Sequence record: DRR378314_1835
Reading direction: 5' to 3' (one strand)
Length of the DNA stretch: 64,000 bases
In this document: one piece after another, positions 12,860-63,696 of the stretch
How positions within the stretch are numbered: the stretch's first letter is position 1
Layout: every line of letters starts with the position of its first letter
The notes under the pieces: model-generated
Databases searched by the model: none
Told to the model about the DNA's origin: nothing
What the model saw: only the letters and a program-made list of their open reading frames with translations
Made by a program: the position numbers and the translations under genes

Positions 12860-12934
12860 GCTCTCGTGGTGAAATGGATATCACGTGGCTCTCCGGAAGC
12901 TAAGTTGCAGGTTCGATTCCTGCCGAGAGCGCCA
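12860..12934 (+). tRNA. tRNA-Arg(CCG), 75 nt
   Basis: acceptor GCTCTCG/CGAGAGC-G-CCA; D stem GTGA/TCAC; anticodon stem TGGCT/AGCTA with loop CT-CCG-GA; T arm GCAGG-TTCGATT-CCTGC. Confidence 0.95.
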
Positions 12935-36864: not shown

Positions 36865-36899
36865 TCGCATAATGCAAAAAACCAAGTTGCAAGATGCAT
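36865..36899. promoter_or_regulatory. two LuxO-type enhancer boxes
   Basis: TCGCA-TAA-TGCAA (36865) and TTGCA-AGA-TGCAT (36887). Confidence 0.7.
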
Positions 36900-36940: not shown

Positions 36941-36956
36941 TGGAATGAAGCCTGCA
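36941..36956 (+). promoter_or_regulatory. sigma-54 promoter
   Basis: TGGAATGAAGCCTGCA (GG-N10-GC); IHF-like TTTCAATAGGTTA at 36923-36935. Confidence 0.65.
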
Positions 36957-41744: not shown

Positions 41745-41761
41745 CGCAATTTAGGCGCCAA
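41745..41761 (-). promoter_or_regulatory. sigma-54 promoter
   Basis: minus strand TTGGCGCCTAAATTGCG. Confidence 0.8.
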
Positions 41762-41801
41762 CTATTTTAATGGCTTAGCGCGGCGTTTTTTGTCTAATGC
41801 T

Positions 41802-41814
41802 TTGCATATTGCAA
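41802..41814. promoter_or_regulatory. LuxO-type enhancer box shared by divergent sigma-54 promoters
   Basis: TTGCA-TAT-TGCAA. Confidence 0.75.
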
Positions 41815-41864
41815 TATATGTTCGCAAATTGGGTTTTTAGTCGCTATTTTATGGGAAATAACGT

Positions 41865-41880
41865 GGGCATGGTTCTTGCG
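41865..41880 (+). promoter_or_regulatory. sigma-54 promoter
   Basis: GGGCATGGTTCTTGCG (GG-N10-GC). Confidence 0.75.
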
Positions 41881-43073: not shown

Positions 43074-43076
43074 AGT

Positions 43077-44489
43077 ATGAAAGGAATAAAGCAAATTGCC
43101 TACTTTGGACTATCAACCTTACTTCTCAAAGGGTTAGGCTTTGTTTTATTGCCTATTTCAACACGGTTATTAAACCAAACACAATTTGGTGAGTTGAATT
43201 TTTTAGTCTCTATTTCAGCTGTGATGTCGTTGCTTTTATGTTTAGGTTTACCAGAACTTTTATTTAAACAACAAATGCATAGTGAAGTCCATAAGCGTGC
43301 ATTGTTTAGAGATGCATTACTACTGTGTAGTGTACTAAGTTTATTGTTTGTTTTAATTCTCTGGTTTTTTATTCAGCCTATAAGTGAACTATTACCTATT
43401 TCTTTGTCATTAATTGACTTGCAGTTACTCGCCTTAAACTTAGCTTTTTCGTCACTTTTATCACTCGTTTTTTGCTTTTTCAGGTATTACGAAATGGCGA
43501 AGCAATTTTGTTTTCTGGCGGTTTTGCAAGGGGTGGGTCAAACACTCTTAACCATAGTTTTACTCTACCTTGGTTTTGGGGTAACAGGGGTAATGGCATC
43601 AGGTGCGATTGCAAGCTGCGTTGTTTTAATCATTTCACTTGGTATTATTTTTTCAAGGATTAACATTGATTTTAAACAAGTACCATGGAGCATTTCACGC
43701 AAAAATGGTTTGTTTTTATTGAGTATTCTAGTGTCATCGTTATTTGTTTATGCCAATAACGGGGCCGAAAACTGGTTTATTGCAGCCAATATAGGGAAGG
43801 AGGCGTTAGCACAATATTATGTTGCTTTGCAATTTGCAGTGATGACCTCCTTCGCTTTTGAGCCCGTAAGAATGTGGTGGTTCTCCCGCCGATTTGATGA
43901 ACTATCCTCGAGCCCTTCACGTTATGTGTACTTATGTGAACTTAGCCTTGAGATAGGGATTGCACTGTGTGCATTAATGCTAATTGTTACGCCACACCTG
44001 TTTATTTTTGTGCTACCTCAAAGCTACTTACTCAATGCCTGGTTGTTACCTTGCCTTATTTTTATTGTAGTACTTCGTCATCATAGTGACTTATTAAATA
44101 TTGGCTGTTATATCCATTCTAATGGCCTATTTGTTTCGGTGATTAATGGCATCAGTGCTGTATGTGTTCTTATTCTACTTACTTATTTAGTACCTGCATG
44201 GGGTGTGGTTGGTGCCGTTGTCTCGTTGGTGTTGGCGCAAACACTCAAAACTATTTTATTTTTTGTGGTGAGCCAAAAACTAGAAACTTTGTCATTTAAT
44301 TTTCATCGAATAGTACCAAGCTGGGTGTGCTTTTTAAGTATTTTTGCGTGTGCTGTGATTGACGTAAGCTATGCTGTGAGTATCCAGTGCCTTATTTTTA
44401 CTTGTTTACTTATTATTTTGGCTAACAAGTATAAATCTCTAGTAACCAATACCTTTGAGCAATTAACTAAAAGGAATGCACATGGTTAA
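43077..44489 (+). CDS. Wzx-type polysaccharide flippase (SypK-like)
   Basis: multi-TM; LLP..TRLL...FGEL. Confidence 0.85.
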   Translation: MKGIKQIAYFGLSTLLLKGLGFVLLPISTRLLNQTQFGELNFLVSISAVMSLLLCLGLPELLFKQQMHSEVHKRALFRDALLLCSVLSLLFVLILWFFIQPISELLPISLSLIDLQLLALNLAFSSLLSLVFCFFRYYEMAKQFCFLAVLQGVGQTLLTIVLLYLGFGVTGVMASGAIASCVVLIISLGIIFSRINIDFKQVPWSISRKNGLFLLSILVSSLFVYANNGAENWFIAANIGKEALAQYYVALQFAVMTSFAFEPVRMWWFSRRFDELSSSPSRYVYLCELSLEIGIALCALMLIVTPHLFIFVLPQSYLLNAWLLPCLIFIVVLRHHSDLLNIGCYIHSNGLFVSVINGISAVCVLILLTYLVPAWGVVGAVVSLVLAQTLKTILFFVVSQKLETLSFNFHRIVPSWVCFLSIFACAVIDVSYAVSIQCLIFTCLLIILANKYKSLVTNTFEQLTKRNAHG

Positions 44490-45834
44490 TTGGTATAAGC
44501 AACATAATTTATTAATCAATGGGCTTTTGGTCACTATTTTAGTTTCGGTGCTGTATTTCTTATTTGGCCCAATCGCTGCTTTTGCACTTTTACTGTTGCC
44601 CTTTGCAGGCTTTTTAGCTGTTCGTTTAAGTACGGTATTTGTCATTCTGTTTATCCTCTTTAGTTACTTTAGAATCCACGAAGCATTTGTGGTGCTTATG
44701 CCGCTAAAAATACCCAAATTGCTGGCAATTGCTTCATTATTGGCAATTGCATGGCATTTGTTTATTTCTAAAACATTAAAGCCTCACTGGAGTTCTACTC
44801 ACCTGATTTTTGTGATCTGGTTTGCATGGCTAACGGTGTGTGTGTTTTCAGCGTCGAACAGAGGTGTGGCCATTGAATATTGGTCAGGGGTTTTAGTAAA
44901 AGTGTTTATTATGGTGTTTGCTATAAGCTGGTGGTTAACCCGTTTCTCTCACTTTAGCTTTGTGAGGCTGGGAATTATGATCTCAGGAGTCACGATTTCT
45001 TTAGTCGCACTTAATAACAAGATGAATGGAGTAGGGCTTGTTGAAGGTACTCGAGTAACTATTTCACGAGAATACCGTTCGCAACTAGGAGACCCAAACG
45101 ATCTATCTTTGGTGCTTATGTTCCCTGTGTCTTTTTTAGCGGCGGAGTTGTTTGATACACATGCGAATAAGTATCGACGCATTTTTGCCGGAGTTGGATT
45201 AATTTTAGCTATTTCAGGTGTTATCGCAACGCAAAGTCGAGGCGGGCTTTTAGGTATTGCTGCCATTTTAAGTTTCTTCTTATATCAAAAAGTAAAAAAC
45301 CCTGTGGTTGTGGCTGCATTTGGTGCCGTTGGCATGTTAGCCATGATGGTGTTCGCAGGCATTTCAGATCGACAAAGTGGAGGCGCTGCTGAATCTGGTG
45401 TTGATGAATCAGCTATGGGGAGAATATATGCTTGGCAAGCGGCCATAAATATGGCGATAGCGAATCCATTTACAGGTGTCGGTGTAAATAACTTTTTTGT
45501 TAATTACTATTTTTATAGTCCGCATTGGGATGGCAAGAATCATGCAGTACATAGCACATGGTTTCAAGTTCTAGGTGAAACAGGGTTTGTAGGAATGTGT
45601 ATATTTGTGTTGGTGATTGCTGCTATTTACCGCAGTTTATCTAGAGTGCTGTGCATGAATAAGCTGAAGTTTAGTCCTGATGTAGCTGTTAATGCCAATG
45701 CATTAAAAGCAGGTTTACTAGGTTTTATGGTAGCTGGCACGTTTTTAACACAAGCTTTTACATGGCCACTTTACATTATCTTGTCTCTCACGATTGCACT
45801 TGAAAAGCTAACAGTTCAAAACAATAAGGAATAA
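44476..45834 (+). CDS. O-antigen ligase/Wzy-type polymerase (SypL-like)
   Basis: [33 protein letters not shown]. Confidence 0.9.
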
Positions 45835-45838
45835 CCGC

Positions 45839-46549
45839 ATGTTGACACAATTAAAGCATTGGCTAAAAAATAGTGAACATCCGCTGGCATCCCCATTTTT
45901 TCGTTTTGCAAAAGCGCTTCGCAATCCGCAAATGATAGTGATACCAGTGTTTCACTCTGGATTATTCCACTTCCATCATTTGATTAAGCAGCTAAGCCAT
46001 GAGCTACTGCGTGTTTTATATTTTACACCACTTTTTAAAAGCCAAATTGCAGGCTCAAAGAAGCGCTTGTATGTGTATTCGGGTATGCCGCAAATTCTCG
46101 GTAAGCTTGAAATTGAGTGTGGCGATGACGTTAGAGTCTCTGGAATAAGTACCTTATGCGGCCGCTCTTGCGGTAATACAAAGGCTAAATTAATCGTTGG
46201 CAGTAATGTTGATATTGGTTGGCAAAATGCGTTTTCTGTTGGTCGTACTATTATACTTGAGGATGATGTGCGATTAGCTGGCAGAGTTTTTCTTGCAGGC
46301 TTTCCTGGGCACCCTGTGGACTGTGAACGTCGCGCTGCGGGGGAAAGTGATGATGAGTCTCAGGTTGGCGATATCATAATAAAACAAGGTGCGTGGCTTG
46401 GAACCGGAGTAACTGTACTTGGTGGTGTGACAATTGGTAAAGGAGCCATTATAGGTGCTGGCAGTGTCGTTACTAAAGATGTACCAGCATTTTGTATTGC
46501 AGCTGGCAACCCTGCAAAAGTAGTAAAGGAAATAGAGGGTGACGCATGA
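45839..46549 (+). CDS. hexapeptide-repeat acyltransferase (SypM-like)
   Basis: [35 protein letters not shown]. Confidence 0.92.
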
Positions 46550-47676
46550 AATTTATCGTTTTCGCAGAAGATTGGGGCAGTCACCCAAGCAGCACTCAGC
46601 ATTTATTTCATGAGCTTGCGCAACAGCACGAGATCCACTGGGTGAACTCTATTGGAATGCGTAAACCACGTTTGAGGCTTCATGATATAAAGCGTGTTTT
46701 TGATAAAGTGTTACAAGTATTCAAACCTACCAAAACACAGTCACTTACAACGCCTAAAAATATGGTTGTATATAAACTGCCTATTTTACCTTGGCATGAT
46801 AACCGCTTTGTTCGCTCTATAAATAAACGTATTTACGCTCACTTTTTCAAAGAACATGGAGACCCTACTCCTGTGGTTTACTGGTTAAGTGTGCCAACTG
46901 CGCATTACCTTGTAAAAAAACAGCCACAAGATAAGGTGATTTATTATTGCGGGGATGACTTCTCAGCATTAGCAGGGGTAGATGCACAGCTTGTTACTCC
47001 TTTTGAGAAGAAATTAATAGCAACCGCAGATTTAATTTATGTCATAAGTGATTTTTTAATGGCAAAAATGCCCGCCAATAAAGCTAAAATGTTAAGCCAC
47101 GGCGTGAGCGTTGAGTTATTTAGTGAAAGTACAATCAAGGCCGACGAAATCAAAGCATTCAATGCGCCAGTGATTGGCTTTTACGGCAGTATAAATGCAT
47201 GGCTTGATATTGACCTGCTTGAGGCGCTTGCAGCAGCAAGACCCGATTACCAATTAGTATTAATCGGTCATATTGTTACTAACATAGAACGGTTATTAAG
47301 TTTTAAAAATGTGACGCATATTCCAGCCGTCAGTCATGAGCGATTAGCATCTTTTTCTGCACATTGGAGTGTATCGATTTTACCTTTTGTTATTAACGAT
47401 CAAATACGTGCATGCGATCCCCTAAAGCTAAAAGAATACCTAGCAGCAGGCAAACCTATTGTTACAACAAACTTCCCCGCTGTAGAGCGTTATGCTTCCC
47501 ACCTTTTTATAGCGGATACTACACAGCAATTTATTAGCCACCTTGATAACGCACTGAACCTTAGTAAAGCGCAATTAATGTGCTTAGAAAAGACACAGCA
47601 AAACATTGCACTCCAACACAGTTGGCAATCTAAGGCGAATACAGTAATCAATGATACCGTGCGGCTAAATCGCTAA
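46546..47676 (+). CDS. glycosyltransferase (SypN/GT4-like)
   Basis: [33 protein letters not shown]. Confidence 0.9.
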
Positions 47677-47698: not shown

Positions 47699-47714
47699 TG
47701 GCGCGCCCTGTGCA
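47699..47714 (+). promoter_or_regulatory. sigma-54 promoter
   Basis: TGGCGCGCCCTGTGCA; box TAGCA-AAA-TGCAA lies downstream at 47783-47795. Confidence 0.65.
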
Positions 47715-47812
47715 ACTACCTAGTAAAGCCGGTTATTAGCAGCAAATCATTTTTATTTTGCAAATAATCGCTCATTTATGCATAGCAAAATGCAAATATA
47801 TAGGTAGGGATT

Positions 47813-52194: not shown

Positions 52195-52200
52195 TTTTTT

Positions 52201-52245
52201 TCGCATAATGCAAAAGCACACTTAAAAAGCGATTGCATTATGCGT
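52201..52245. promoter_or_regulatory. two LuxO-type enhancer boxes
   Basis: TCGCA-TAA-TGCAA (52201) and TTGCA-TTA-TGCGT (52233). Confidence 0.7.
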
Positions 52246-52305
52246 ATCAAGCCTGCTTACACCAAGCACTAAAATAAAAACTAATAAAATTCAACTGCTT
52301 ATATT

Positions 52306-52320
52306 TGGCATTCTTCTTGA
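52306..52320 (+). promoter_or_regulatory. sigma-54 promoter (variant -12)
   Basis: TGGCATTCTTCTTGA; IHF-like ATTCAACTGCTTA at 52289-52301. Confidence 0.65.
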
Positions 52321-52358: not shown

Positions 52359-52667
52359 ATGATTAATTTAGCCAGCGATACAGAGCAAAAAGTTTTAACA
52401 CTTCCTACAGACTTCTCAGGTTTTGCAGTTGATGAACTAAAAGATAAGTTTGAATATTTTGTAGAACAGGATGCGAGTTCGGTTATTCTTGATTTCTCAA
52501 ACACGGAATTTATCGACTCTTCTGGAATTGGTGCTATTGTTTTTCTATACAAAAGAATTGAAAAACAAGGTAATTCATTATCTTTACTAAATGTGACGGG
52601 TCAGCCGTTTAAGCTAATGAATCTGTTGAGAGTCGATAAAACAATTCCGTTTATAGACTCAATCTAA
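52359..52667 (+). CDS. STAS anti-sigma-factor antagonist (SypA-like)
   Basis: LDFS..EFIDSSGIGAIV with phosphoacceptor Ser. Confidence 0.92.
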   Translation: MINLASDTEQKVLTLPTDFSGFAVDELKDKFEYFVEQDASSVILDFSNTEFIDSSGIGAIVFLYKRIEKQGNSLSLLNVTGQPFKLMNLLRVDKTIPFIDSI

Positions 52668-52686
52668 ATGGACTAAGGAGAGTATA

Positions 52687-53544
52687 ATGAGATCTTATGT
52701 CATCATTGCCATTATTTTGTTTGTAGGTGGGTGTTCTTCTTGGCCGGAGCACGGTAAAGGGGGGCTAGCTGAAAAATATCAAAACTATCCACAGGAAGAT
52801 GAACTATATGATTCTAATTATACGCAACCTGAAGATGTGGTAACCAGTGAGTTTGAGCATTTAGTACTTAAACTTGAATTACTTAAATCACAAGACATCA
52901 AGGCGTGCATGCCTGCGCAGCTACTCAAGGCGCAAATATACGAAAACCGTATTCGTCGATTAATTGCAGCTCAAATGTGGCAAGATGCTGAGCACGACTT
53001 ACTACTTCATTATCATGCGCTAAATCAGCTAACTAATCATTTTGATACTGTTCGTAAACTCACCGATTGCGCACCAGAAACGGCGACCAAGCCTGCGCTT
53101 GTGAATGTTAAAAAACAATTATCAGAATTACTTAATAGTGACAACCAATTTGCATTTAATGCGTTTGAAATAACGCCTAAATATGCCGTGAGAGTGGCCC
53201 AAGCAGCGGATTTAATTAAACAGTTAGAAAGTATCAACATTTTATTGGTAGGTCATACTGATAAATTAGGTACAACGAATAGTAACTATGAGCTTGCTCT
53301 CAAACGTGCAGAAACAGTAAAGCAATGGTTGGTAATATATGGGGTGCCTAAAGCGAGTATTACCACACTGACTCAAGGGAGCTTAAAACCGTATAGTGAC
53401 AATGCAATTCAAAATGAAAGTGCTCGTCACTCAGACCGCAGAGTTGAAGCAATAATACTCGATGCAAATAACACGAATCCACAAGATCAAAAAGAAAAAG
53501 CATTGGTTAAATGGACAAAAATTATTGCAAGTAAAAAGGAGTAG
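52687..53544 (+). CDS. OmpA-domain lipoprotein (SypB-like)
   Basis: lipobox VGGC; GHTD..G...N..LA..RA; DRRVE. Confidence 0.9.
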   Translation: MRSYVIIAIILFVGGCSSWPEHGKGGLAEKYQNYPQEDELYDSNYTQPEDVVTSEFEHLVLKLELLKSQDIKACMPAQLLKAQIYENRIRRLIAAQMWQDAEHDLLLHYHALNQLTNHFDTVRKLTDCAPETATKPALVNVKKQLSELLNSDNQFAFNAFEITPKYAVRVAQAADLIKQLESINILLVGHTDKLGTTNSNYELALKRAETVKQWLVIYGVPKASITTLTQGSLKPYSDNAIQNESARHSDRRVEAIILDANNTNPQDQKEKALVKWTKIIASKKE

Positions 53545-53548
53545 TGCC

Positions 53549-55630
53549 ATGAAAACTATTTTTACTATGCTGATATTACTATTTTTGGTGACCCCTGGTG
53601 CTGCAAGCACAGCTGCTGACGAACTTGAAGTGCAAGTAGGTAACAAACTGTTTTTGTATATACCGGGTGAGGTTGAATTTGATGGCTTATTTGAGGTAGA
53701 TAAAAATGGCCAAATCAATATCCCTGAAATTGGAAAATTTAACGTAGCTAATAAAACGAATGCACAAATAGAATCTGAATTAAAGCCGCTGTTAACAGAG
53801 CTATATGTTGCAATTGATGATTTTTATGTGGAGGTGCGTAGCCGCGATATTTTTATTAACGTGTTAGGTTATGTCATTAACCCATCTCAAGTTAGTATTC
53901 CAGATGACGGCAACATTCAAATGGTTATTGCAAAAGCCGATGGCTTAAAGCCGGGTGCTCAGCTTGATAGGCTACAGATAAGACGTGGCGATGAGGTCAT
54001 TGAATTTAACTACAAGGCCTACCTAGACACAGGCAATATTAGCCTATTACCCCCACTTAAAAGTGAAGATACCGTGTTTGTGCCTGTCTCTCCTTTGTTA
54101 GGTAATGTGCAAATAGATTTTGATGCACAAACGCTCAGTGCCACTGGGGATGCCAGCGACAAAAGCGCCATCACTATTTTAGGTGAAGTACACAACCCAG
54201 GTAGTTTTTCATTCAAAGAAAAAATGACAATTTTAGATGCGCTAATGCGTGCAGAAGGGGTGACGCGTTACGCTGACGTGACCAAAATAAGAGTCATTTT
54301 AAATGAAACCCCTGTCATATTTGATTTAAAAGCTTATCTTGATAAACCAGTTAATAGTATGCCTGAGCTAGAAGCAGGGTCGACTATTTACGTCCCCATT
54401 ATGGTGGATGATGTCAATACTACCTCGCGTACAGTTTATATTATGGGAGAGGTGCAAAAACCTGGTGCCTATGAAGCGGCAGACAGTACTAATTTTTTAG
54501 ATATTTTAGCTAATGCTGGCGGGCCTACACGGTTTGCTGAAACACGTTTAATTAAAATATTGACCCCTCAAGGCGAGAGTATTTTATTTGATTTACAAAG
54601 TTACAGTGAAGGCACACAAACAGTTAAGGTGCCTGATCTTAATCCAGGTGATGTCATATTTGTGCCTGAGAAAACAGACGTTAATGAAAAAAGCTGGTTA
54701 AAAATCCCCACTAAACGAGCAATAAAAATCATTGGTGCTATTCAATCGCCAGGACGTTATGAGTGGAGCAATGAGATGGACTTTACCGATTTACTTGCGC
54801 ATGCTGGTGGGCCAACCAAAGGGGCGAACATCAATGATATTAAAATAATTCGAGATGGTGAAGAAACCCAGCGTTTTGATTTAGAAAAATACACCATTAC
54901 TGACGGGCAAACTTCTTTACCTGATTTGCATGCAGGCGACACCATTATTGTGGAAGAATTACCCGTTGATCCAGCTGATAATAAATCGCAATGGATACGC
55001 CAAGAGTCGAGTAAGTCAATCTACATTATGGGACAAGTGGGCTCTCCTGGGCGCTATGCGTTTAATGATAATATGCACTTCATTGATATTCTGTCAGCTG
55101 CTGATGGGCCAAATGCAAATGCAGACATTAGAAATATCCGCGTAACACATCGTAATAGTAATCGTGCACGGGTAAGCAAGTTAGATTTAGCGCTTTATTT
55201 TGAAACAGGTGATGAAACATTATTTCCGCACGTGCAGCCTGGCGATACTATTTTTATCCCAGAAAAAAACAAAGACTGGTTGCGCACACCTAAAGAACGG
55301 GTTGTACGCATTATGGGCGCGGTACAAAAGCCAGGGCGGTATAACTTTGACGATACCATGTCTATTCTTGATGTATTGGCGGAAGCTGGTGGGCCACTGA
55401 ATTCAGCGTTAATTGATAAAATTGTTGTCGTTAATCATTCATGTTGTAAAGAGCAGTCGAGGGTTTTTGATTTAGAGGCGTTTATTAAGTCACCTAATTC
55501 AGCAAATATTCCTGTATTGCGTGCCGGCGACACGCTTTATGTGCCAGATAAAGGGCAGGATTTACTCAGTCAATTTAAAGACAATTTCCTCGACTTTATT
55601 ACTATTATTGCGCTAGTGGTGGGCTTATGA
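53549..55630 (+). CDS. multi-SLBB polysaccharide export protein (SypC-like)
   Basis: GQINIPEIG export motif; repeated GEV.KPG.Y/LA.AGGP units; hydrophobic C-terminus. Confidence 0.9.
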   Translation: MKTIFTMLILLFLVTPGAASTAADELEVQVGNKLFLYIPGEVEFDGLFEVDKNGQINIPEIGKFNVANKTNAQIESELKPLLTELYVAIDDFYVEVRSRDIFINVLGYVINPSQVSIPDDGNIQMVIAKADGLKPGAQLDRLQIRRGDEVIEFNYKAYLDTGNISLLPPLKSEDTVFVPVSPLLGNVQIDFDAQTLSATGDASDKSAITILGEVHNPGSFSFKEKMTILDALMRAEGVTRYADVTKIRVILNETPVIFDLKAYLDKPVNSMPELEAGSTIYVPIMVDDVNTTSRTVYIMGEVQKPGAYEAADSTNFLDILANAGGPTRFAETRLIKILTPQGESILFDLQSYSEGTQTVKVPDLNPGDVIFVPEKTDVNEKSWLKIPTKRAIKIIGAIQSPGRYEWSNEMDFTDLLAHAGGPTKGANINDIKIIRDGEETQRFDLEKYTITDGQTSLPDLHAGDTIIVEELPVDPADNKSQWIRQESSKSIYIMGQVGSPGRYAFNDNMHFIDILSAADGPNANADIRNIRVTHRNSNRARVSKLDLALYFETGDETLFPHVQPGDTIFIPEKNKDWLRTPKERVVRIMGAVQKPGRYNFDDTMSILDVLAEAGGPLNSALIDKIVVVNHSCCKEQSRVFDLEAFIKSPNSANIPVLRAGDTLYVPDKGQDLLSQFKDNFLDFITIIALVVGL

Positions 55631-56331
55631 AAATTATACCAGAGCAGTACCATGAGTTAGAAACAATCTGTAATACTATTAAAGATAGTGATGCGCGGTG
55701 TGTCACGTTTATTTCATTACATGGTGCAGAAGGGTCATCTAGTGCCTGTATAAGCGTTGCAAGGCGTTTACAAAGCCAAAATCAATCAGTGTTAATTATT
55801 GACCTTAATCCAATAAGCTCATTTAACATTGATGAGCATTTACCAAGCTTAACGAATGAGTGGCGATTTGATGATATTTCATGCCAGCTCAGTGTATTAC
55901 CTTACAAAGAAGTTAATATACTAACGATAAAAAACTTATCGGCTATTGAATCAGCAAAAAATAAGCATGTTTTGAATGAGGCAATTATCCGTTTAAAGCA
56001 AGAATATGATTATATCTTGTTAGATATGTCACCGGCTTTAAAGCTTAATCGTAACAATGTTCCCTTGCACTCACTAAGTTTGTGTAGCGATTTAACGTTG
56101 GTTACTGTTGGGTTGGGTATCAACGATGAAGAGTCATTGTGTGAAGGTGTTCGGGAATTAAAACAGGCAGGACATAGCAATATAAAAATGTTAGTTAGCC
56201 AACATGATTTTGCCCCCTTAGGTGAAAGAGTCTTGCTCTTTTTAGAGAGTAAAGCTCAGAAGTGGCCGAAAGTGTGTCGGCTATTAAGTAACAAAATACA
56301 TAAACAGAAATGGCTGTTTAAGCATTACTGA
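55627..56331 (+). CDS. CpsD/CapB-like P-loop protein (SypD-like), degenerate Walker A
   Basis: SLHGAEGSSS, VLIIDLN, YDYILLD. Confidence 0.75.
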   Translation: MKIIPEQYHELETICNTIKDSDARCVTFISLHGAEGSSSACISVARRLQSQNQSVLIIDLNPISSFNIDEHLPSLTNEWRFDDISCQLSVLPYKEVNILTIKNLSAIESAKNKHVLNEAIIRLKQEYDYILLDMSPALKLNRNNVPLHSLSLCSDLTLVTVGLGINDEESLCEGVRELKQAGHSNIKMLVSQHDFAPLGERVLLFLESKAQKWPKVCRLLSNKIHKQKWLFKHY

Positions 56332-56339
56332 GGGGCTGC

Positions 56340-57800
56340 ATGGATATTTTATTTGAACGACGTTTTGAATTACTTTGGCCAACATTAACTGAAATTCGCC
56401 AAGTACTTAAACATGTATTAGGGGCATTGTCTGTTAAGCGTGATGAAGCTGATGCAGCCGGATTGGTTGCAACGGAATATTTAACTAATCTTATTCGCCA
56501 TAATGAGGGAAGTGAGCAGTGGATCACTGTGCGCATAAGTCAAATAAGCAGTGATTCGTATCACTTAACTTTTATCGATGAACTAAAACCCTATAACCTA
56601 TTTGAAAAAAATAACTCCACTTGGAAAATAGACTCTGAAGAGCTGGTGGAGGGAGGAATGGGGGTTGAATTGATTCGCCACTATTTCGCTGACGCCTCAT
56701 ATGAAACAATTGAGTTAAAAAACTTTTTTACATTTCCTTTAACTCAGATTGATAAGCGACCTTGCGTTATCTATGTTGATGACGATGTAACTCAGCTTGC
56801 ACTGATGAAAGCCTATTTAAAAGACAAGTTTCAAGTTATTACATGTGAAAATATCGAGGCCGGTTGGCAAGCTATTCTAACGTCGGATGCAAGTATTCTG
56901 TTATTGGATCATAAGCTCAAAAATGGCACTTGTGAGCCGCTATTGGCGAAGCTAAATCGTTCGAACCTTAAGTCCCAATTATCTGTTGTTATGCTTACGG
57001 GTGATGACAGTGAAGAGGTGATCAGTAAAATTAACCGTTTAGGTGTTGATGATTACTTAATTAAACCCGTAAAGAAAAACAAACTATTACAAAGTATTGA
57101 GCGTGTTACACATCGATTTGCCTACTTGTCATACCAAAGCACGTTTGGTCAGGCTCCAGCAAAGGTCCACCTTGCAAATAAAAAAACTGCGCATATTTTT
57201 GGCTCAATTAGCGTTGGCAATGGCGGCGATTTTTTTATGCCAATCAATGATGAAGGCAGTGCGTTTATACTCGGTGACATGATGGGGCACGGGTTACAAG
57301 CTTTGAAAGAAAGCTTTGCAATTAAAGGTTTTATAAGTGGATTTTTAGCAACAGGACTCGCTTACCAAGATATGCTGAGTGCATTAAATGATGCACTTTA
57401 CAAGCAACAACTATGTAAATCGAGCCTAGTGACCTTGGTTATTTGCTTCTTAAAAGACAACAAACTGTATTGGTTAAATGCAGGTCATCCAGCTCCAGTG
57501 GTAATTTATAAAGATGGCACTGTTTTACAGCTTACAGGTACCGGTCCGTTACTCGGTCTTTCAAAAGAGCATACTTATACACTTTATGAAGCTGAGTTAG
57601 AAAATGTAGAGCACCTTTTGGTGTATACCGATGGTTGGACCGAGAATCGATGTGCTGATATGAATGAAATTGCTGAACTAAAAAAAATAATACCCCCTCA
57701 CCAGGACTCTGCTGAGGAGTTTGCTCATTTATTATGGAAAAATTCACAAGTAATCCTTTCTAAAGAAGTAGATGATGCATCGTTGGTGATCATTAATTGA
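56340..57800 (+). CDS. RsbW-like kinase + receiver + PP2C/SpoIIE phosphatase (SypE-like)
   Basis: TEYLTNLIRH, EGGMG; VDDD..LLLD..KP; GGDF, GDMMGHG, NAGHP, YTDG, DDAS. Confidence 0.9.
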   Translation: MDILFERRFELLWPTLTEIRQVLKHVLGALSVKRDEADAAGLVATEYLTNLIRHNEGSEQWITVRISQISSDSYHLTFIDELKPYNLFEKNNSTWKIDSEELVEGGMGVELIRHYFADASYETIELKNFFTFPLTQIDKRPCVIYVDDDVTQLALMKAYLKDKFQVITCENIEAGWQAILTSDASILLLDHKLKNGTCEPLLAKLNRSNLKSQLSVVMLTGDDSEEVISKINRLGVDDYLIKPVKKNKLLQSIERVTHRFAYLSYQSTFGQAPAKVHLANKKTAHIFGSISVGNGGDFFMPINDEGSAFILGDMMGHGLQALKESFAIKGFISGFLATGLAYQDMLSALNDALYKQQLCKSSLVTLVICFLKDNKLYWLNAGHPAPVVIYKDGTVLQLTGTGPLLGLSKEHTYTLYEAELENVEHLLVYTDGWTENRCADMNEIAELKKIIPPHQDSAEEFAHLLWKNSQVILSKEVDDASLVIIN

Positions 57801-57893: not shown

Positions 57894-59300
57894 ATGCCAC
57901 CAACAATTTTAATTGTAGAAGATACCCAGTCGTTAGCTATGATGTACCAAGCCTATTTACTCCCTACAGGTGTCAACACCTTGCTTGCTAATGACGGGGC
58001 AACTGCTTTAGAAATCATAGATCGCGTCAAGCCTGACTTAATCGTGCTAGATGTTATGCTTCCTGATATGAATGGTTTGGATATACTCGCTCAATTAGAA
58101 CCCGAAAACTCTCCACAAGTGGTTGTTTTAACTGGCCACGCCACTAAAGAAATGGCAATCCAAGCAATAAAATTGGGGGCGAGTGACTTTTTAGAAAAGC
58201 CTGTTGAAGCAGATCGCTTTAGAATAACAATAAATAATGCTCTCAAAATTAAAGACCTAAAACAAAAAGTTACCACATACAAAAACACATATGAAAATGG
58301 TCGTTATTTTGATTTGATTGGTAGCTCAAAACAAATGCAGTCTGTTTATCAAATCATCAGCTCTGCATCTGTGAGTAAAGCGACGGTGTTTATTACTGGC
58401 GAAAGCGGCACAGGGAAAGAGTTGTGCGCACGTGCTGTCCATCAAGCATCTAGCAGAGCTAGTAAGCCATTTGTGGCATTAAATTGTGCCGCAATACCTA
58501 AAGATTTGATAGAAAGCGAAATATTTGGTCATCTAAAGGGGGCATTTACAGGAGCTATTGCAAATCGTGCTGGTGCTGCAGGTCAAGCTGATGGTGGAAC
58601 ACTCTTTTTAGATGAGTTGTGTGAAATGGATATCAATCTGCAAAGCAAGTTGCTGCGTTTTATCCAAACGGGAACCTATCAGTTAGTGGGTAGCGAAAAA
58701 GAGGTTAAAGTTGACGTGCGTTTTGTGTGTGCGACAAATCGAGATCCTTTAGCTGAAGTTGAGGCGGGACGATTTAGGGAAGATTTGTATTATCGATTAC
58801 ATGTGATCCCTATCGAACTTCCTCCTTTACGCGAGCGTGAAGGCGATATTATTGAAATAGCTGAGGCCTTGTTTGTAAAAATAGCGAAAGAAGAGAGCCA
58901 CCCATTTAAGTCTATGACAATGGATGTAAAGCACGCTTTTAGCCAATATGATTGGCCGGGTAATGTTAGGCAGTTAGAGAACGTAATTCGAAATATATTA
59001 GTACTCAATCCACAAGAAATAATTGATGTAAATATGCTTCCAGTTCTTCCAAATAGCAACATTAAAACACCGTTGCCAATTGAGAAAAAAGAACCTGAAA
59101 ACCGTGTTTCTGTAGAAGATTTAACGGCATTACCTTCAGATGAAGCTGGGGTGAAGGCGCTTTGGCTGGCTGAGAAAGAATACATAGAAAGAGTAATCGA
59201 TATTTGTGCCAGTAATATTCCTAAAGCCGCGGCACTATTAGATGTGAGCCCCTCTACTCTTTACAGAAAAATTAAAGGGTGGGAGGAAAGTGCTACTTAG
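57894..59300 (+). CDS. luxO: sigma-54-dependent response regulator, LuxO-like
   Basis: VEDT.S.A..Y..YL.P; KPVEADRFRITINNA; GESGTGKE; GAFTGA; DELCEMD; NIPKAAALLDVSPSTLYRK. Confidence 0.75.
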   Translation: MPPTILIVEDTQSLAMMYQAYLLPTGVNTLLANDGATALEIIDRVKPDLIVLDVMLPDMNGLDILAQLEPENSPQVVVLTGHATKEMAIQAIKLGASDFLEKPVEADRFRITINNALKIKDLKQKVTTYKNTYENGRYFDLIGSSKQMQSVYQIISSASVSKATVFITGESGTGKELCARAVHQASSRASKPFVALNCAAIPKDLIESEIFGHLKGAFTGAIANRAGAAGQADGGTLFLDELCEMDINLQSKLLRFIQTGTYQLVGSEKEVKVDVRFVCATNRDPLAEVEAGRFREDLYYRLHVIPIELPPLREREGDIIEIAEALFVKIAKEESHPFKSMTMDVKHAFSQYDWPGNVRQLENVIRNILVLNPQEIIDVNMLPVLPNSNIKTPLPIEKKEPENRVSVEDLTALPSDEAGVKALWLAEKEYIERVIDICASNIPKAAALLDVSPSTLYRKIKGWEESAT

Positions 59301-60307
59301 TTAGGCGCATTGTAAGCATCAAGCAATATTGAAAATTGTTGTTTGCCGGAAAACCTTTGCGTAAGGACTGAGTAAGCATTTTGTATCATTATTTTTTTAC
59401 TTTCAGGATGCAGCGTTAGCAGTGTTTCAATGCATTGTTGGCATTCTTTTTCATGTCCTTTATTCATTAATAGTCCGTTAGTTTTATTGATAATACTTGG
59501 TATTTCGCCAACGGGGCTGCTAATTACTAGTTTATTCTTGGACATTGCTTCAAGTAGTGTCATTGGCAAGCCTTCCTCTCGAGAGCAGATGAGTAACACA
59601 TCTATGTTATGCCAAATTTCATCTCGTTTAGCTAATCCGTAATACTGTAAGTTACTTATTTTTGGAATATCTTTTTTCATTGGGCCATCACCAAAAAGAT
59701 GAAAGCTCACATTAGGGTTGTTCTTCATATTGTTTGCTAGTGAAAAGAAAATATCAGGTGCTTTTTCGTAAGATAGTCGCCCCACAAACCCGACTCTAAT
59801 ATGACTATGAGTTTCGATAGGGGGAACTTCTTTAGGCATATCTATAAAATTTTCAAGTAATGTTGCATTATGAATTGTTTTTTTAATTTTACGTGAAACT
59901 GCGAAATTAGTAGAAAGTATTGATAGCCACACGTCTAGCTTGTTATAAAACCACATTTTTCCTTTGCCAGCCTCGCCAGCATGATAGGTGCTAATACAAC
60001 GTCGCCCCATTATTTTGCAAGCTATACGGCCTAAAATACCCGCTTTATAGCCATGCGTATGGATGACCGTATGTTTATCATACTGAGTGAATTGATTTAT
60101 CAAGCTACTGAGTGTACCTTGAATGAAGGAATACTCTACGCTCTCTTTATCAAGCAGTGTATAAAATTCATGATTGTGATGATTTTTATAAAATAATACA
60201 GAGCAGCTAACATGATTATTTTTTAGTAGCTTAAATAGTTCTACTATATGGGTTTCAATGCCGCCGATCATGGATGAGTCGACAAATAAAACAACCTGAC
60301 ATTTCAT
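59297..60307 (-). CDS. family 4 glycosyltransferase (SypH-like)
   Basis: GGIETH, HTHGYKAG, VGRLSYEK, EEGLPMTLLEAM. Confidence 0.92.
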   Translation of the reverse strand: MKCQVVLFVDSSMIGGIETHIVELFKLLKNNHVSCSVLFYKNHHNHEFYTLLDKESVEYSFIQGTLSSLINQFTQYDKHTVIHTHGYKAGILGRIACKIMGRRCISTYHAGEAGKGKMWFYNKLDVWLSILSTNFAVSRKIKKTIHNATLLENFIDMPKEVPPIETHSHIRVGFVGRLSYEKAPDIFFSLANNMKNNPNVSFHLFGDGPMKKDIPKISNLQYYGLAKRDEIWHNIDVLLICSREEGLPMTLLEAMSKNKLVISSPVGEIPSIINKTNGLLMNKGHEKECQQCIETLLTLHPESKKIMIQNAYSVLTQRFSGKQQFSILLDAYNAPN

Positions 60308-60328
60308 ACTTAACTCCTAAAGAACAAT

Positions 60329-60661
60329 ATGATTGATAATTCCATAATAGAACAACTTAAATCTGATGTGGGTGAAATTTTAGCCATCGAACTAATCCAC
60401 GTTTTTGTTGATGAATCGCAAAAGTTAGTCGCAGAGATGGTTCACTCATCTGATGCTAAAACAATAGAAATAAACGCGCACAGTTTAAAGAGTAGTTGCA
60501 ACAGCTTTGGTGCTACCCAATTAGCGCAAACGTGTTTGCAAATTGAAAAAACTGTTAACCAAGAGGGTGTAAGCTCCCAGTTACAACAACTTTTAAAAGT
60601 AGCGGAGTCCCAAAGCGAGCTCACCTTTAAGCAACTTGCGTTGGTAATCAAAAATCCTTAA
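60329..60661 (+). CDS. stand-alone Hpt phosphotransfer protein, LuxU-like
   Basis: AHSLKSSCNSFGA Hpt motif. Confidence 0.9.
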   Translation: MIDNSIIEQLKSDVGEILAIELIHVFVDESQKLVAEMVHSSDAKTIEINAHSLKSSCNSFGATQLAQTCLQIEKTVNQEGVSSQLQQLLKVAESQSELTFKQLALVIKNP

Positions 60662-61530
60662 ACAAGAGGGCTTTCATCTATTGAGCTTTTTAAAAAAGTA
60701 CAAAATATATGATTTAGCTCGCTAATATCGTGCAAGTGGTTTGAGTGATTTTTAAAATGTGAATTACTAGCTAAAATTTCAGAAATAGCCGAAGGTGAGA
60801 TACTTAAATCGTATATTTTGCTACCGAGCTGCTCTTGCAGCCAATCAATTCCAGCACTTTGAATATGCTTCATAACACTGTTTTCTTCAGCTGTGTTTTC
60901 AATAAAGACCCGGCACGCAGATGTTTTTTCAACGGCTCGAAGTATATCGTCGATTAACAACGCGGGCATCACGCTAGATATAATACTGCCGGGCCCAATA
61001 ATAACTAAATCAGCATTTAAAATAGCATCGACACACCCAGGCGATGCAGCCACTTTATTAGATAAATAGATTTTATCGGGAAGAGAATTTAACGCATCAA
61101 TGGCGCATTCACCAAAAACCTCTTCACCATTGCTTAAAATAGCGACGAGGTCTGTTGGTGATTCAGTCATCGGTAATACTGTCTCAGAGTTACCTAAAAG
61201 CTTATTGAATTTTGCAATTGCTGCTGTTGCAGAATGTGATGCTTGTAGCATGTTTAACAGGACTAAATTGCCTAAGCAGTGGCCTTTTAAATCACCAGTG
61301 GTAAATCTATGCTCATAAATTTTCCTCGTAACGGCTGAGTCATCAGCAAGTTGAACACTGCAGCGCCTTATATCTCCAAGTGCAATACAGTTATGTAATT
61401 GCCTAATTTTTCCCGTGCTTCCACCATTGTCGGTAGTCGCAACAATAGCTGTTAATTGATTACACACTGGCTTTATTGCACTTAAAACTTGTGCGAGTCC
61501 GTGACCACCACCAATACATACTATATTCAT
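60658..61530 (-). CDS. yvcK: YvcK/CofD-related UDP-GlcNAc-binding protein
   Basis: IGGGHGL, TTDNGGSTG, GDIR, GHCLGNL, IIGPGS. Confidence 0.88.
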   Translation of the reverse strand: MNIVCIGGGHGLAQVLSAIKPVCNQLTAIVATTDNGGSTGKIRQLHNCIALGDIRRCSVQLADDSAVTRKIYEHRFTTGDLKGHCLGNLVLLNMLQASHSATAAIAKFNKLLGNSETVLPMTESPTDLVAILSNGEEVFGECAIDALNSLPDKIYLSNKVAASPGCVDAILNADLVIIGPGSIISSVMPALLIDDILRAVEKTSACRVFIENTAEENSVMKHIQSAGIDWLQEQLGSKIYDLSISPSAISEILASNSHFKNHSNHLHDISELNHIFCTFLKSSIDESPLV

Positions 61531-61564
61531 GCACTTGCCCCTTCGCTTGCTTATACTGTTAGTA

Positions 61565-61580
61565 AGCAGTAATCGTTCCA
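61565..61580 (-). promoter_or_regulatory. sigma-54 promoter of yvcK
   Basis: minus strand TGGAACGATTACTGCT; IHF-like ACTCAATGATTTA at 61598-61610; box TTGCA-TAA-CGCGA at 61663-61675. Confidence 0.6.
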
Positions 61581-61698
61581 CCTTAAAACATTTATTAACT
61601 CAATGATTTATATTGAATTTTGTTCTATATTTAATTGGGATGGAATCGACGGTTGCAAATATTTGCATAACGCGATGCATTTTAAACGGAGAGCATTC

Positions 61699-63696
61699 AT
61701 GCAACACAATGATGTCATTACGGTTAATGAGCTACAACTACATCTTTCTAAGCTATCTCAATGTGAAGATGAGATAGGTATATTCACAGCAATGAATAAA
61801 ATGCTTCAACCTTTAATGAAGTACCAAGACTGCATTCTTTTGAAAAAAGAGAATACTCAATGCACATTATTTGCAGCAAGCAACCATAATTTTCATATTG
61901 ATAAATGGCCACATTGTGCACTGTTCTCACAGGCGCTAGAAAGGGGCTTTAGCCTTTGCCAAAATTCAACTGAGGAGTTGGAGTTTACTTATTTAGATGA
62001 GCTAACAAAGCGCAATATGCAGACTTGTTTAATCATAAGTACTGAGCTTGAAATGGGCCGTTTTTTATATATTTTCACGAACATTAATTTAATAGAACAC
62101 TCTGGGGTAGTGCAATCTGAAATAATAAAGCTTTATTTACAACAAGTGGTTTTAGCCTTTATAAACTTAAACCGGGTTGTTGAGCAATCAAGTAAATCGG
62201 TTAGATTACTCGATGACCTTACTCAGTTGTCGACCTTGTTTAAAGAGCTTGCAAGCGAATGGTTTTGGCGAACAGATTCGGACATGAAATTCGTTAGTGT
62301 GAATAATATCGAGAGTGAAAATAAAATATATACCCAGTTATTTTTAAAAAAGAAAATTATGTCCTTACTCACGCATAATGAAAAACAAAATACACAGAAG
62401 TGGCAAGGTTTTTCAAAGCTGATAGAAGAGCGTGAAGATTTTAGTAATTTTGAGTTTGAAGTGAATGCGTCGCAACGCTTATGGGTGTCATTAAATGGTA
62501 AGTCACAGTTTGATGAGTTGGGCCAATTTATAGGGTATTTAGGAATCGCTAAGGATATTACATTTTCTAAACAGCGAGAGGTCGCTTTAGAAAGTGCTAA
62601 ATTAAAAGCGGAAGAGGCAAGTAATACTAAATCTAAATTTTTAACTGTTATGTCACACGAAATCCGCACTCCTATGAATGCAATTATGGGGGTTATTGAG
62701 TTACTTCTTGATACTGAATTAACTCAAGAGCAACGCCAGTGGCTTGATTATGCTAATTCAAGTGCCGATATACTTTATGGTTTAATCACTGATGTATTGG
62801 ATTTTTCAAAAATAGAATCGGGCACAATTTTACTGGTGAATAAACCACTCAATGTAAAGCTATTGATCGAAAATATAGTGGGTCAATTACACATAATAGA
62901 AGACAGTGACGATATCATTTTTTCAATCAATATTGATGAAAAAGTGCCTACTTTTATAATGGGGGATGAATTTCGATTAGGGCAAATTCTATTTAATATT
63001 ATTGGTAACGCGTTTAAATATACGCGTTCTGGCAGTATTTCTTTGCGAGTGAATGTCGAAAATGCCCTGCTTAATTTTGAAGTCAAAGATTCTGGAGTAG
63101 GGATCGCCAAAAAAGATTTAGCACTAATCTTTCAGCCTTTTAGACAAGTGAATGATGGCATTAATAGAGAAAGTGAAGGTGTGGGTTTAGGGTTAAGTAT
63201 TTCTAAGAACTTAATTGAATTAATGGATGGCTCAATAGATGTCCATACTCAACTTGGTTTAGGGAGTACGTTTAGTATATCAATTCCATTGAATACGGCG
63301 CTAGAAAGTGAGGTAGAGAAAGTTTCATTACAAGATCGTTCAACACTCAACATACTTGTTGCTGAAGATAATAAAACCAATCAATTATTGATTAAAGCAT
63401 TCCTAGAAAAGTTAAATCATAAAGTAACGGTTGCTAACGATGGTGCAGAAGCGATTGAATTTATGCAGCTCAAAAGTTTTGATCTAATACTCATGGATAT
63501 CATGATGCCAACTATGGATGGGTTAACTGCTACACAACATATTCGCAATGAGCTTCTAAGCGATATTCCTATTTACGCCCTTACCGCCAACGCTGCCACA
63601 GACGACAAAGCCTCTTGTTTCAAAGTGGGTATGAATAAAGTGCTTACAAAACCGATTAAGTTTGAGACATTGAAGGCATCATTAAATGCATTGTAA
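61699..63696 (+). CDS. cytoplasmic PAS-containing hybrid histidine kinase (HisKA-HATPase-REC)
   Basis: WFWRTD..GIAKDIT PAS; MSHEIRTPMN; NAFKYT, DSGVG, GVGLGL; AEDN..LMDIMMP; GGAG RBS. Confidence 0.92.
   Translation: MQHNDVITVNELQLHLSKLSQCEDEIGIFTAMNKMLQPLMKYQDCILLKKENTQCTLFAASNHNFHIDKWPHCALFSQALERGFSLCQNSTEELEFTYLDELTKRNMQTCLIISTELEMGRFLYIFTNINLIEHSGVVQSEIIKLYLQQVVLAFINLNRVVEQSSKSVRLLDDLTQLSTLFKELASEWFWRTDSDMKFVSVNNIESENKIYTQLFLKKKIMSLLTHNEKQNTQKWQGFSKLIEEREDFSNFEFEVNASQRLWVSLNGKSQFDELGQFIGYLGIAKDITFSKQREVALESAKLKAEEASNTKSKFLTVMSHEIRTPMNAIMGVIELLLDTELTQEQRQWLDYANSSADILYGLITDVLDFSKIESGTILLVNKPLNVKLLIENIVGQLHIIEDSDDIIFSINIDEKVPTFIMGDEFRLGQILFNIIGNAFKYTRSGSISLRVNVENALLNFEVKDSGVGIAKKDLALIFQPFRQVNDGINRESEGVGLGLSISKNLIELMDGSIDVHTQLGLGSTFSISIPLNTALESEVEKVSLQDRSTLNILVAEDNKTNQLLIKAFLEKLNHKVTVANDGAEAIEFMQLKSFDLILMDIMMPTMDGLTATQHIRNELLSDIPIYALTANAATDDKASCFKVGMNKVLTKPIKFETLKASLNAL

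Follow-up and report, generated by a model that had tools for sequence, protein, structure and literature searches.

Predicted direct control of a syp-like biofilm polysaccharide locus of Pseudoalteromonas by a LuxO-family phosphorelay without detectable Qrr RNAs

A stretch of 64,000 nt from sequence record DRR378314_1835 (hereafter the window) belongs to the genus Pseudoalteromonas and carries, between 36.9 and 57.8 kb, an exopolysaccharide (EPS) locus whose gene order is rearranged in comparison to the syp/scv clusters of Vibrio. Positions 57894 to 63696 are the regulatory end of this syp/scv-type biofilm polysaccharide locus. A preliminary description of this segment had listed a sigma-54 regulator, a stand-alone Hpt protein, a convergent yvcK gene and a hybrid kinase lacking an Hpt domain, all within an EPS locus; the open reading frames (ORFs) and domains were found as described. 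The regulator is 96% identical to an NCBI protein named from Pseudoalteromonas atlantica. The same description had suggested that the relay acts on the EPS genes directly. This suggestion is now backed by LuxO-type enhancer boxes and predicted sigma-54 promoters which are conserved in front of the EPS operons, and we consider it likely that a regulator of the LuxO family controls this syp-like locus directly, without a Qrr small RNA (sRNA) in between.

The enhancer site of LuxO, its upstream activating sequence (UAS), is given as TTGCAWWWTGCAA and that of SypG as TTCTCANNNTGMDWN in the portions of PMC10162802 drawn on here. A pair of LuxO-type boxes, spaced by about 32 bp (by 19 bp in L089), preceded the sypA-like gene in all 17 loci compared, the window and 16 further Pseudoalteromonas loci. 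The sequence TGGY-N7-TTGD followed 55-75 bp past these boxes, again in 17 of 17 loci, while shuffled sequences led to an expectation of 0.15. Upstream of the chain-length determinant gene, TGGY-N8-TGCR was present in each of 13 orthologous regions (L081-L096) against 0.07 expected from shuffles; this looser pattern was the one counted, as the strict sigma-54 pattern had no match in these regions. A box with at most one mismatch was located between promoter and start codon in the same 13 regions. Both promoters and the central box of the divergent GT2/GT4 glycosyltransferase (GT) region were conserved in nine of nine Pseudoalteromonas regions, and the box pair upstream of the DUF4842 gene recurred in those two of eight other Pseudoalteromonas loci which carry the gene (L142, L145). 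Genome-wide checks were conducted with the nearest Pseudoalteromonas genome, G001, which has 81% of sampled words in common with the window. It contains the exact box twice, once in the EPS locus and once within a coding region. The latter occurrence (C1:184417), within an ORF of 450 aa, was taken for a chance match. A weak Rfam match to PK-repBA on the minus strand (52127-52247; 26.7 bits with a gathering score of 45, E 0.043) lies over the palindromic box pair of the sypA-like gene and is probably due to chance as well.

Covariance searches for Qrr (Rfam RF00378) gave no hit in the window at the gathering score, nor at E<=1 over positions 36000-64000, and there were no matches in four Pseudoalteromonas genomes (G001, G306, G256 and G202), all of them reported to be 100% complete. 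Two Vibrio genomes served as controls (G089, G023) and yielded four Qrr genes each, one of them beside luxO. The earlier remark that no Qrr sequence is visible near the regulator thus stands. The coordinates of genes, boxes and promoters are collected in Table 1.

Table 1. Genes, LuxO-type boxes and predicted sigma-54 promoters of the EPS locus and its regulatory end (positions of the window; a dot marks features given without strand)
Position	Strand	Feature	Basis or remark
36865..36899	.	LuxO-type box pair TCGCATAATGCAA (36865) and TTGCAAGATGCAT (36887), upstream of DUF4842 gene	motif scan
36941..36956	+	candidate sigma-54 promoter TGGAATGAAGCCTGCA, GG-N10-GC, ~35 nt before DUF4842 start codon	read by eye; 3 mismatches to consensus
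36991..39183	+	DUF6923/GEVED/DUF4842 protein	Pfam; probably belongs to the regulon as a matrix or surface protein
40782..41702	-	GT2 glycosyltransferase, divergent from main biosynthesis operon	homologues in other loci
41745..41880	.	bidirectional control region of GT2/GT4 genes	sigma-54 promoters flanking one box
41745..41760	-	predicted sigma-54 promoter TGGCGCCTAAATTGCG	GG-N10-GC
41802..41814	.	exact LuxO box TTGCATATTGCAA, central, single	motif scan
41865..41880	+	predicted sigma-54 promoter GGGCATGGTTCTTGCG	GG-N10-GC
41916..47676	+	GT4, Wzx flippase, Wzy polymerase, hexapeptide acetyltransferase, GT (SypL/M/N-like block)	Pfam, tblastn
47699..47714	+	predicted canonical sigma-54 promoter TGGCGCGCCCTGTGCA before chain-length gene	consensus scan
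47751..47795	.	weak box (47751-47763) and LuxO-type box TAGCAAAATGCAA (47783-47795)	between promoter and chain-length start codon
47813..52194	+	chain-length determinant (SypO-like), GT4 (SypP-like), GT2 + Bac_transf fusion (SypQ/R-like; scvN-scvO fusion)	Pfam, tblastn
52201..52245	.	two inverted LuxO-type boxes, 32 bp apart: TCGCATAATGCAA (52201-52213) and TTGCATTATGCGT (52233-52245)	motif scan
52306..52320	+	predicted sigma-54-like promoter TGGCATTCTTCTTGA before sypA-like gene	non-canonical -12, TTGD for TTGC
52359..57800	+	sypA-E-like operon: STAS (SypA-like), OmpA (SypB-like), Poly_export/SLBB (SypC-like), ParA-like ATPase, SypE-like HATPase_c_2-REC-SpoIIE	Pfam, tblastn
57894..59300	+	regulator, REC + Sigma54_activat + AAA_lid_14 + HTH_8, 468 aa, SypG position	Pfam, NCBIfam
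59297..60307	-	GT4 glycosyltransferase, SypH homologue, inverted	Pfam, tblastn
60329..60661	+	stand-alone Hpt phosphotransfer protein, 110 aa	Pfam
60658..61581	-	YvcK/CofD-related protein	convergent with Hpt gene, 4-nt overlap
61603..63696	+	hybrid kinase HisKA-HATPase_c-REC, 697 aa, without Hpt domain	Pfam

The genes of the EPS locus identify it as syp-type. In tblastn searches against eight Vibrio syp loci, the STAS, OmpA, Poly_export/SLBB, ParA-like, SypE-like, Wzy, acetyltransferase, GT, chain-length determinant and GT2-Bac_transf fusion genes all matched the corresponding syp genes, and window genes also matched syp loci of families other than that of Vibrio. Identities to the Vibrio syp loci were 38-47% for the Wzy, acetyltransferase and GT proteins of the SypL/M/N-like block and 34-36% for the inverted GT4, which matched the gene after SypG in eight of eight loci. 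The scvN-scvO fusion in Pseudoalteromonas was already reported in a survey of scv loci (PMC8941931), and in L051, a syp locus from outside Vibrio, the regulator has a DUF4842-family protein as its neighbour. The cluster is flanked by gmk, spoT and recG on one side and, in G001, by yicC-rph-pyrE on the other, not by uvrB and moaA.

The preliminary description had stated that luxO and luxU are followed by a convergent yvcK in Vibrio. This order was seen at a Vibrio locus (L041) with the sequence rnfCBA, uvrB, LuxO, a 114-aa Hpt, CofD/YvcK on the minus strand, moaA and moaB. A response regulator followed by an inverted YvcK gene was common to five of five Vibrio luxO loci and to a further 12 of 12 named Vibrionaceae loci, including those of A. 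fischeri, P. angustum and V. cholerae. The window keeps the order apart from a single inserted GT gene, as had been described, and the inserted gene is the SypH homologue. The regulator stands between the SypE-like and SypH-like genes. Compared with the Vibrio orders, the window therefore interleaves SypE, SypG and SypH with LuxO, LuxU and yvcK.

The YvcK protein scored 245 bits on TIGR01826 (cut-off 196), and its gene is present as a single copy per genome. Co-occurrence was assessed in 121 Pseudoalteromonas genomes, 41 of which contained the regulator and 40 a YvcK above the cut-off. YvcK was present in 39 of the 41 regulator-positive genomes, with a broken copy in one more, and in 1 of the 80 regulator-negative genomes. 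These counts say that yvcK is part of an accessory cluster and is co-inherited with the locus.

The Hpt protein has the motif AHSLKSSCNSFGA, starting at residue 50, contains AHSLKSS with the conserved histidine and reached 43 bits on the Pfam Hpt model. Its top NCBIfam match was LuxU (NF041948), at 35.9 bits and a cut-off of 140. A profile of the Pseudoalteromonas Hpt proteins scored Vibrio LuxU at 51-56, SypF-like Hpt domains at 36.5-72 and other stand-alone Hpt proteins at 49-68 bits. The protein is thus LuxU-like in architecture only and without specific affinity to LuxU, in a family that evolves fast. Stand-alone Hpt genes were present in 14 of 16 Pseudoalteromonas loci. The complete order of regulator (+), GT4 (-), Hpt (+), YvcK (-) and kinase (+) was kept in 13 of the 16, with regulator identities down to 63%. 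None of the related Pseudoalteromonas loci had a SypF-like kinase between the SypE-like gene and the regulator; the SypE-like gene, where present, abuts the regulator. The locus of Pseudoalteromonas sp. H71 (L150) looks decayed, with Wzy and SypE-like genes only as fragments and GT4 and yvcK in pieces; regulator, Hpt and kinase of this strain still match over nearly the full length.

The kinase has no predicted membrane helix (top 19-residue hydropathy 1.38) and is predicted to be cytoplasmic; no Pfam domain was found in its first 330 residues. The first 32 codons (61603-61698) are matched among the orthologues by L082 alone and, over a part, by L084 and L069. Translation probably begins at M33 (nt 61699), and this start would leave a divergent region of 117 bp between kinase and yvcK. 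An AlphaFold (AF2) model of residues 33-345 (predicted local distance difference test 83) showed an alpha/beta domain, a long helix and a PAS domain. Foldseek related the model to tandem PAS/GAF sensors, namely LOV-PAS kinases, bacteriophytochromes and the N-terminal region of DhaR; the template modelling (TM) score to the GAF domain of Lcd1 was 0.60 over 163 columns. The predicted layout is therefore a GAF/PAS-like domain, PAS, HisKA, HATPase_c and REC, with no Hpt. Given the lack of a membrane helix and the GAF/PAS-like sensor, the input is most likely intracellular, and nothing marks the kinase as an autoinducer receptor or points to quorum sensing.

Gene content, homology, the maintained gene order, conserved boxes and promoters, the absence of Qrr matches and the co-inheritance of yvcK are observed; DNA binding, the direction of phosphotransfer, the role of yvcK and the nature of the signal we infer as follows. 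The regulator most likely binds boxes of the TTGCAWWWTGCAA type and activates the sigma-54 promoters of at least four transcription units, which are the sypA-E-like operon, the chain-length/GT/sugar-transferase operon and the divergent GT2 and GT4-Wzx-Wzy operons; the DUF4842 surface-protein gene is probably also a target. Phosphate would pass from the kinase to the stand-alone Hpt and from there to the REC domain of the regulator. The SypE-like protein would probably also receive phosphate from the Hpt, at its REC domain, and would then control the STAS protein. YvcK belongs to a family described in NCBIfam as binding UDP-N-acetylglucosamine (UDP-GlcNAc) and probably couples sugar-nucleotide supply to polysaccharide production; scvN has been linked to poly-N-acetylglucosamine synthesis (PMC8941931). 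The circuit would have no Qrr sRNA step and would respond to an intracellular cue, not to an autoinducer.

Several observations weigh against this mechanism. The boxes of the chain-length gene lie downstream of its promoter, an odd place for an activator of the bacterial enhancer-binding protein (bEBP) type, and could indicate downstream activation or repression. In front of the sypA-like gene the -12 element is TTGA, TTGT or TTGG in 17 of 17 loci, and the canonical GC at -12 is missing. The case for boxes and promoters rests on position and conservation, since their counts over the whole window were near expectation: boxes were not over-represented (13 versus 8.1 expected; 8 of 100 shuffles reached 13), and neither were matches to the sigma-54 consensus (49 versus 44.7). 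In the genome-wide search the paired-core pattern found the sypA-like site only, and the reversed-pattern control also had one match. The position of the LuxO linker glycine, mapped with a check against SypG D141 of PMC10162802, is taken by D140 in the window; the eight Pseudoalteromonas sequences compared all have D, E or Q there. The exchange G145E in the linker of V. cholerae LuxO is reported to raise activity, and some SypG proteins are reported to have N or D at this position (PMC10162802). In view of D140 and the G145E effect, part of the regulator's activity may not depend on phosphorylation. Kin are not independent, so that the co-occurrence counts overstate the case. In some Pseudoalteromonas genomes about 30-36 kb separate the yvcK half from the regulator, so that adjacency to the regulator is not obligatory. 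Moreover, binding by the regulator, phosphotransfer and regulation are what we infer from sequence.

A possible, though doubtful, explanation of the gene set is true orthology of regulator, Hpt and yvcK with the luxO-luxU-yvcK genes of the Vibrionaceae, either as an ancestral triad or after block transfer. The triad would then have become attached to a syp locus, or LuxO would still have its ancestral pre-Qrr task here, a corollary we hold as tentatively. The best NCBIfam match of the regulator was LuxO (NF041946, 631.3 bits), with 397 bits on the NtrC model, and the best PDB match was LuxO 5EP0 (480 bits). Identities were 53-54% to Vibrio LuxO and 45-47% to Vibrio SypG. The score stays below the LuxO cut-off of 800, however, so that the curated model does not class the protein as LuxO; in a survey of 201 genomes of the same GTDB order this cut-off was passed in only ten genomes, all from one Vibrio-like genus (843-867 bits). 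Nine of these ten had a second copy at 543-611 bits on the LuxO model. Wherever their surroundings were inspected (L044-L048, L076-L078), such second copies stood in syp loci and hence are SypG. Many other families of the order have one copy at 640-684 bits, and these non-Vibrio relatives thus score above the window regulator.

Phylogenetic analyses of the regulator gave a divided answer to the question of LuxO orthology. In a careful maximum-likelihood (ML) tree of 40 rows (LG+C20 PMSF), a clade of Pseudoalteromonas and Aestuariibacter was sister to Vibrionaceae LuxO (ultrafast bootstrap, UFboot, 94; Shimodaira-Hasegawa approximate likelihood ratio test, SH-aLRT, 90), and Vibrio SypG together with the non-Vibrio syp-linked regulators formed a separate clade (94/84). 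The sister relation to LuxO was lost in two quick trees. The backbone of the first (60 rows) was unresolved; Pseudoalteromonas with Aestuariibacter (support 100), the LuxO proteins of the Vibrionaceae and a large clade of mixed membership branch off from it. That of the second (57 rows) collapsed; it contained named LuxO proteins and alphaproteobacterial relatives, with 22 rows added and 5 of the 40-row set dropped, and its row L191 (368 aa, mis-extracted, branch length 10) is to be ignored. The regulator was outside the Vibrionaceae LuxO clade in all three trees, and in none of them was it placed with the syp-linked clade. When the Pseudoalteromonas clade was forced to join the syp-linked clade, the approximately unbiased (AU) test returned a delta lnL of 6.37 and a p-AU of 0.352, so that grouping with the syp-linked regulators is not rejected. 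There is little signal in the backbone of the regulator tree. The expected kinship with LuxO in an ML phylogeny was accordingly recovered as a sister relation in the 40-row tree and not in the other two; a grouping with SypG, which the preliminary description had named as speaking against its proposal, appeared in no tree, and the AU test did not reject a grouping with the syp-linked clade. Altogether, the regulator is best classified as a member of the LuxO/SypG superfamily in a lineage of its own, for which a sister position to LuxO is possible.

The linkage to yvcK bears on the orthology with the luxO-luxU-yvcK triad as well. Within the order survey, a LuxO-like regulator beside yvcK was confined to the Vibrio-like family and Pseudoalteromonas, and tblastn located yvcK within 9 kb in all five Vibrio luxO loci and in none of the 35 others. 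The enhancer boxes are also of the LuxO type. YvcK itself was present in 106 of the 201 survey genomes, with the lowest scores among the Pseudoalteromonas proteins and the 245 bits of the window as the lowest of all. In a quick unrooted tree (LG+G4; 15 of 59 rows dropped, one long-branch row, L134), the Pseudoalteromonas YvcK proteins formed a divergent group of their own, apart from the other 34 rows (SH-aLRT 99) and near neither Vibrio YvcK nor the other members of their own family. Although this separation does not favour a triad shared with Vibrio, the tree neither supports nor excludes block transfer. The similar Hpt-profile scores of LuxU and SypF-like domains, the genomic site between gmk and yicC-rph-pyrE in place of uvrB-moaA and the missing linker glycine likewise argue against orthology with the triad.

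Relatives of the regulator were also encountered elsewhere. A Zobellella-like genome (L057) has a response regulator-Hpt pair beside moaA, as in Vibrio luxOU, without yvcK; its regulator did not join Vibrio LuxO in any tree, and YvcK was present in none of five genomes of its genus. Regulators of Zobellella (L198) and Oceanisphaera (L210) were related to it in the tree. Proteins from Alphaproteobacteria (Azospirillum, Nitrospirillum, Aquibium and Roseomonas metagenome-assembled genomes; L189-L229) were 47-53% identical to the window regulator, and the one of Pseudovibrio exalbescens (L215) has syp-like neighbours.

Another reading, which we also regard as tentative, takes the regulator as the orthologue of SypG, with SypF replaced by or split into kinase and Hpt; its further claim that the likeness to LuxO is an ancestral state lost in Vibrio SypG alone is put forward with the same reserve. 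The helix-turn-helix (HTH) motif of the window regulator is NIPKAAALLDVSPSTLYRK. The LuxO motif, NIP[RKQ]AA..L[DE]VSPSTIYRK, is common to the non-Vibrio syp-linked regulators, and Vibrio SypG alone departs from it with NV[LI][NS]AAVLLELSPSTVYRK. The resemblance to LuxO over SypG is consequently, in large part, a shared ancestral state: the LuxO-like look is mostly the family-wide condition, from which Vibrio SypG has departed. Of the preliminary view that the regulator follows the motifs of LuxO more closely than those of SypG, the identities and the HTH sequence are borne out. The boxes follow the same pattern. With at most one mismatch, LuxO-type boxes occurred in five of five Vibrio luxO loci and in none of eight Vibrio syp loci; outside Vibrio, such a box preceded the STAS gene in three syp loci (L051, L052, L061). 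The place of the regulator between SypE-like and SypH-like genes, the outcome of the AU test and the best Hpt-profile score, obtained with a SypF-like Hpt domain (72 bits), are likewise consistent with a SypG orthologue, despite the fact that no tree joined the regulator to the syp-linked clade. The kinase is more difficult to derive from SypF. SypF-like kinases are built as PAS-HisKA-HATPase-REC-Hpt, several of them with HAMP, and differ from the window kinase in the sensor; alignment coverage was 52-59% for them and 72-102% for the Hpt-less kinases of modules in which a response regulator, an Hpt and a hybrid kinase accompany a FIST protein. Linkage to yvcK was not seen in the other syp loci compared.

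A small ORF upstream of SypG in L044 (~8402, plus strand) weakly matched the window Hpt (E 5e-6; 33 bits to the Hpt profile). No tblastn match to the window kinase was obtained in L044, hence no SypF-like gene was detected there, and the small ORF may be a remnant or a stand-alone Hpt.

An unlikely alternative is that the regulator does not receive its input from the Hpt, kinase and yvcK next to it and is constitutively active or fed by a distant kinase; that the relay serves only the SypE-like protein or other targets is an equally unlikely consequence. The exchange of the autoinhibitory linker glycine for D, E or Q would suit a constitutive regulator. Two loci, L090 (G298) and L094 (G310), maintain an intact regulator frame with the GT4-Hpt-yvcK-kinase half elsewhere, and the four relay-side genes alternate in strand, so that a single operon with the regulator is not possible. 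On the other hand, the order was preserved in 13 of 16 loci across deep divergence, and regulator and yvcK occurred together in 39 of 41 genomes. A kinase without Hpt requires a partner Hpt, and the REC domain of the regulator retains the usual aspartate context, DLIVLDVMLPD. The arrangement of L090 and L094 was also noticed in genomes G210, G227, G308 and G317, from the same Pseudoalteromonas sub-lineage.

That the regulator in truth acts on Qrr-like sRNAs at other sites and only indirectly on the EPS genes is very improbable: LuxO-type boxes are what Qrr promoters use and a divergent sRNA could escape the Rfam model, but the searches were empty in the window and four genomes while each Vibrio control gave four Qrr genes, the exact boxes of G001 are restricted to the EPS locus and a coding region, and it is EPS operons that the conserved boxes precede.

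Direct control of the EPS operons by the relay would acquire a wider meaning if the locus had kept the ancestral task of the LuxO/SypG family, that is, a bEBP of LuxO-type specificity which, with a stand-alone LuxU-like Hpt and yvcK, directly drives a biofilm locus of the GlcNAc type. We regard this as a speculative proposition and rather improbable as it stands. If true, the LuxO-to-Qrr core arose when an EPS regulator was redirected to the promoters of sRNAs, Vibrio SypG would represent the copy with diverged HTH and enhancer, a change that insulated the two circuits, and the adjacency of luxO, luxU and yvcK in Vibrio would be a functional relic and not an accident of insertion.

Among known systems, SypG, ScvE and RbdG of the Vibrionaceae syp, scv and rbd loci have the same domain order as the window regulator and the same place, between sypA-E-like genes and a SypH-like GT. 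A locus with several sigma-54 promoters that have boxes upstream, and a SypE-like/STAS partner-switch pair, are further common traits (PMC8941931, PMC10162802). The window differs from them by a regulator outside the Vibrio SypG clade with another HTH, by LuxO-type boxes in place of TTCTCANNNTGMDWN, by the rearranged gene order and by the replacement of SypF, in position, with an Hpt-less kinase, a separate Hpt and yvcK. The LuxO-LuxU system of the Vibrionaceae resembles the window in its regulator (53-56% identity), box type, stand-alone Hpt of ~110 aa, convergent yvcK and Hpt-less hybrid kinases as input. Here the differences are a score of 631 in place of at least 800 bits, the lack of a detected Qrr, D140 for the linker glycine, another chromosomal site, a kinase without predicted membrane helix and with a GAF/PAS-like sensor, and EPS operons as predicted targets. 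The response regulator-Hpt-FIST-hybrid kinase modules of other families of the order (L062, L069, L068) comprise a LuxO-like regulator, an Hpt of 112-114 aa and an Hpt-less kinase, that of L069 aligning over the full length at 29% identity; these modules carry a FIST protein and no yvcK and are not located in syp loci.

No sigma-54 regulators of group behaviour in Vibrio have been studied more thoroughly than LuxO and SypG. Their kinship, common structure and shared linker have been reported, as has the finding that both can activate qrr1 whereas syp promoters respond to SypG alone (PMC10162802, published in 2023). Loci of the syp/scv type with a SypG-type regulator were reported for 28 genera including Pseudoalteromonas (PMC8941931). 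The name luxO was applied in Pseudoalteromonas on the basis of BLAST/COG2204 assignment, and its expression followed the colour of an acyl-homoserine lactone (AHL) reporter in three isolates (PMC6275029, in the portions drawn on here). As a caution, annotations of LuxO in this genus should not be taken to indicate Vibrio-style quorum sensing. A literature search combining Pseudoalteromonas with LuxO/LuxU, syp/sypG and biofilm returned no description of a module in which a split LuxU-like Hpt, an Hpt-less kinase and yvcK replace SypF. LuxO-type enhancers on syp-type promoters and the missing linker glycine were not found described in it either; the supplements of PMC8941931 (Tables S4 and S5) may list the genes. 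The locus brings traits of the LuxO and SypG systems together: enhancers of LuxO type, an HTH resembling that of LuxO, a LuxU-like Hpt and yvcK belong to a syp-type cluster, in a genome with no detectable Qrr. The ancestral targets of the LuxO/SypG family, the split of enhancers between quorum sensing and biofilm formation and the role of YvcK in precursor supply thereby become testable questions in a tractable marine bacterium.

Outside the EPS locus, the window contains one tRNA gene at positions 12860-12931 (Rfam, 61.5 bits).

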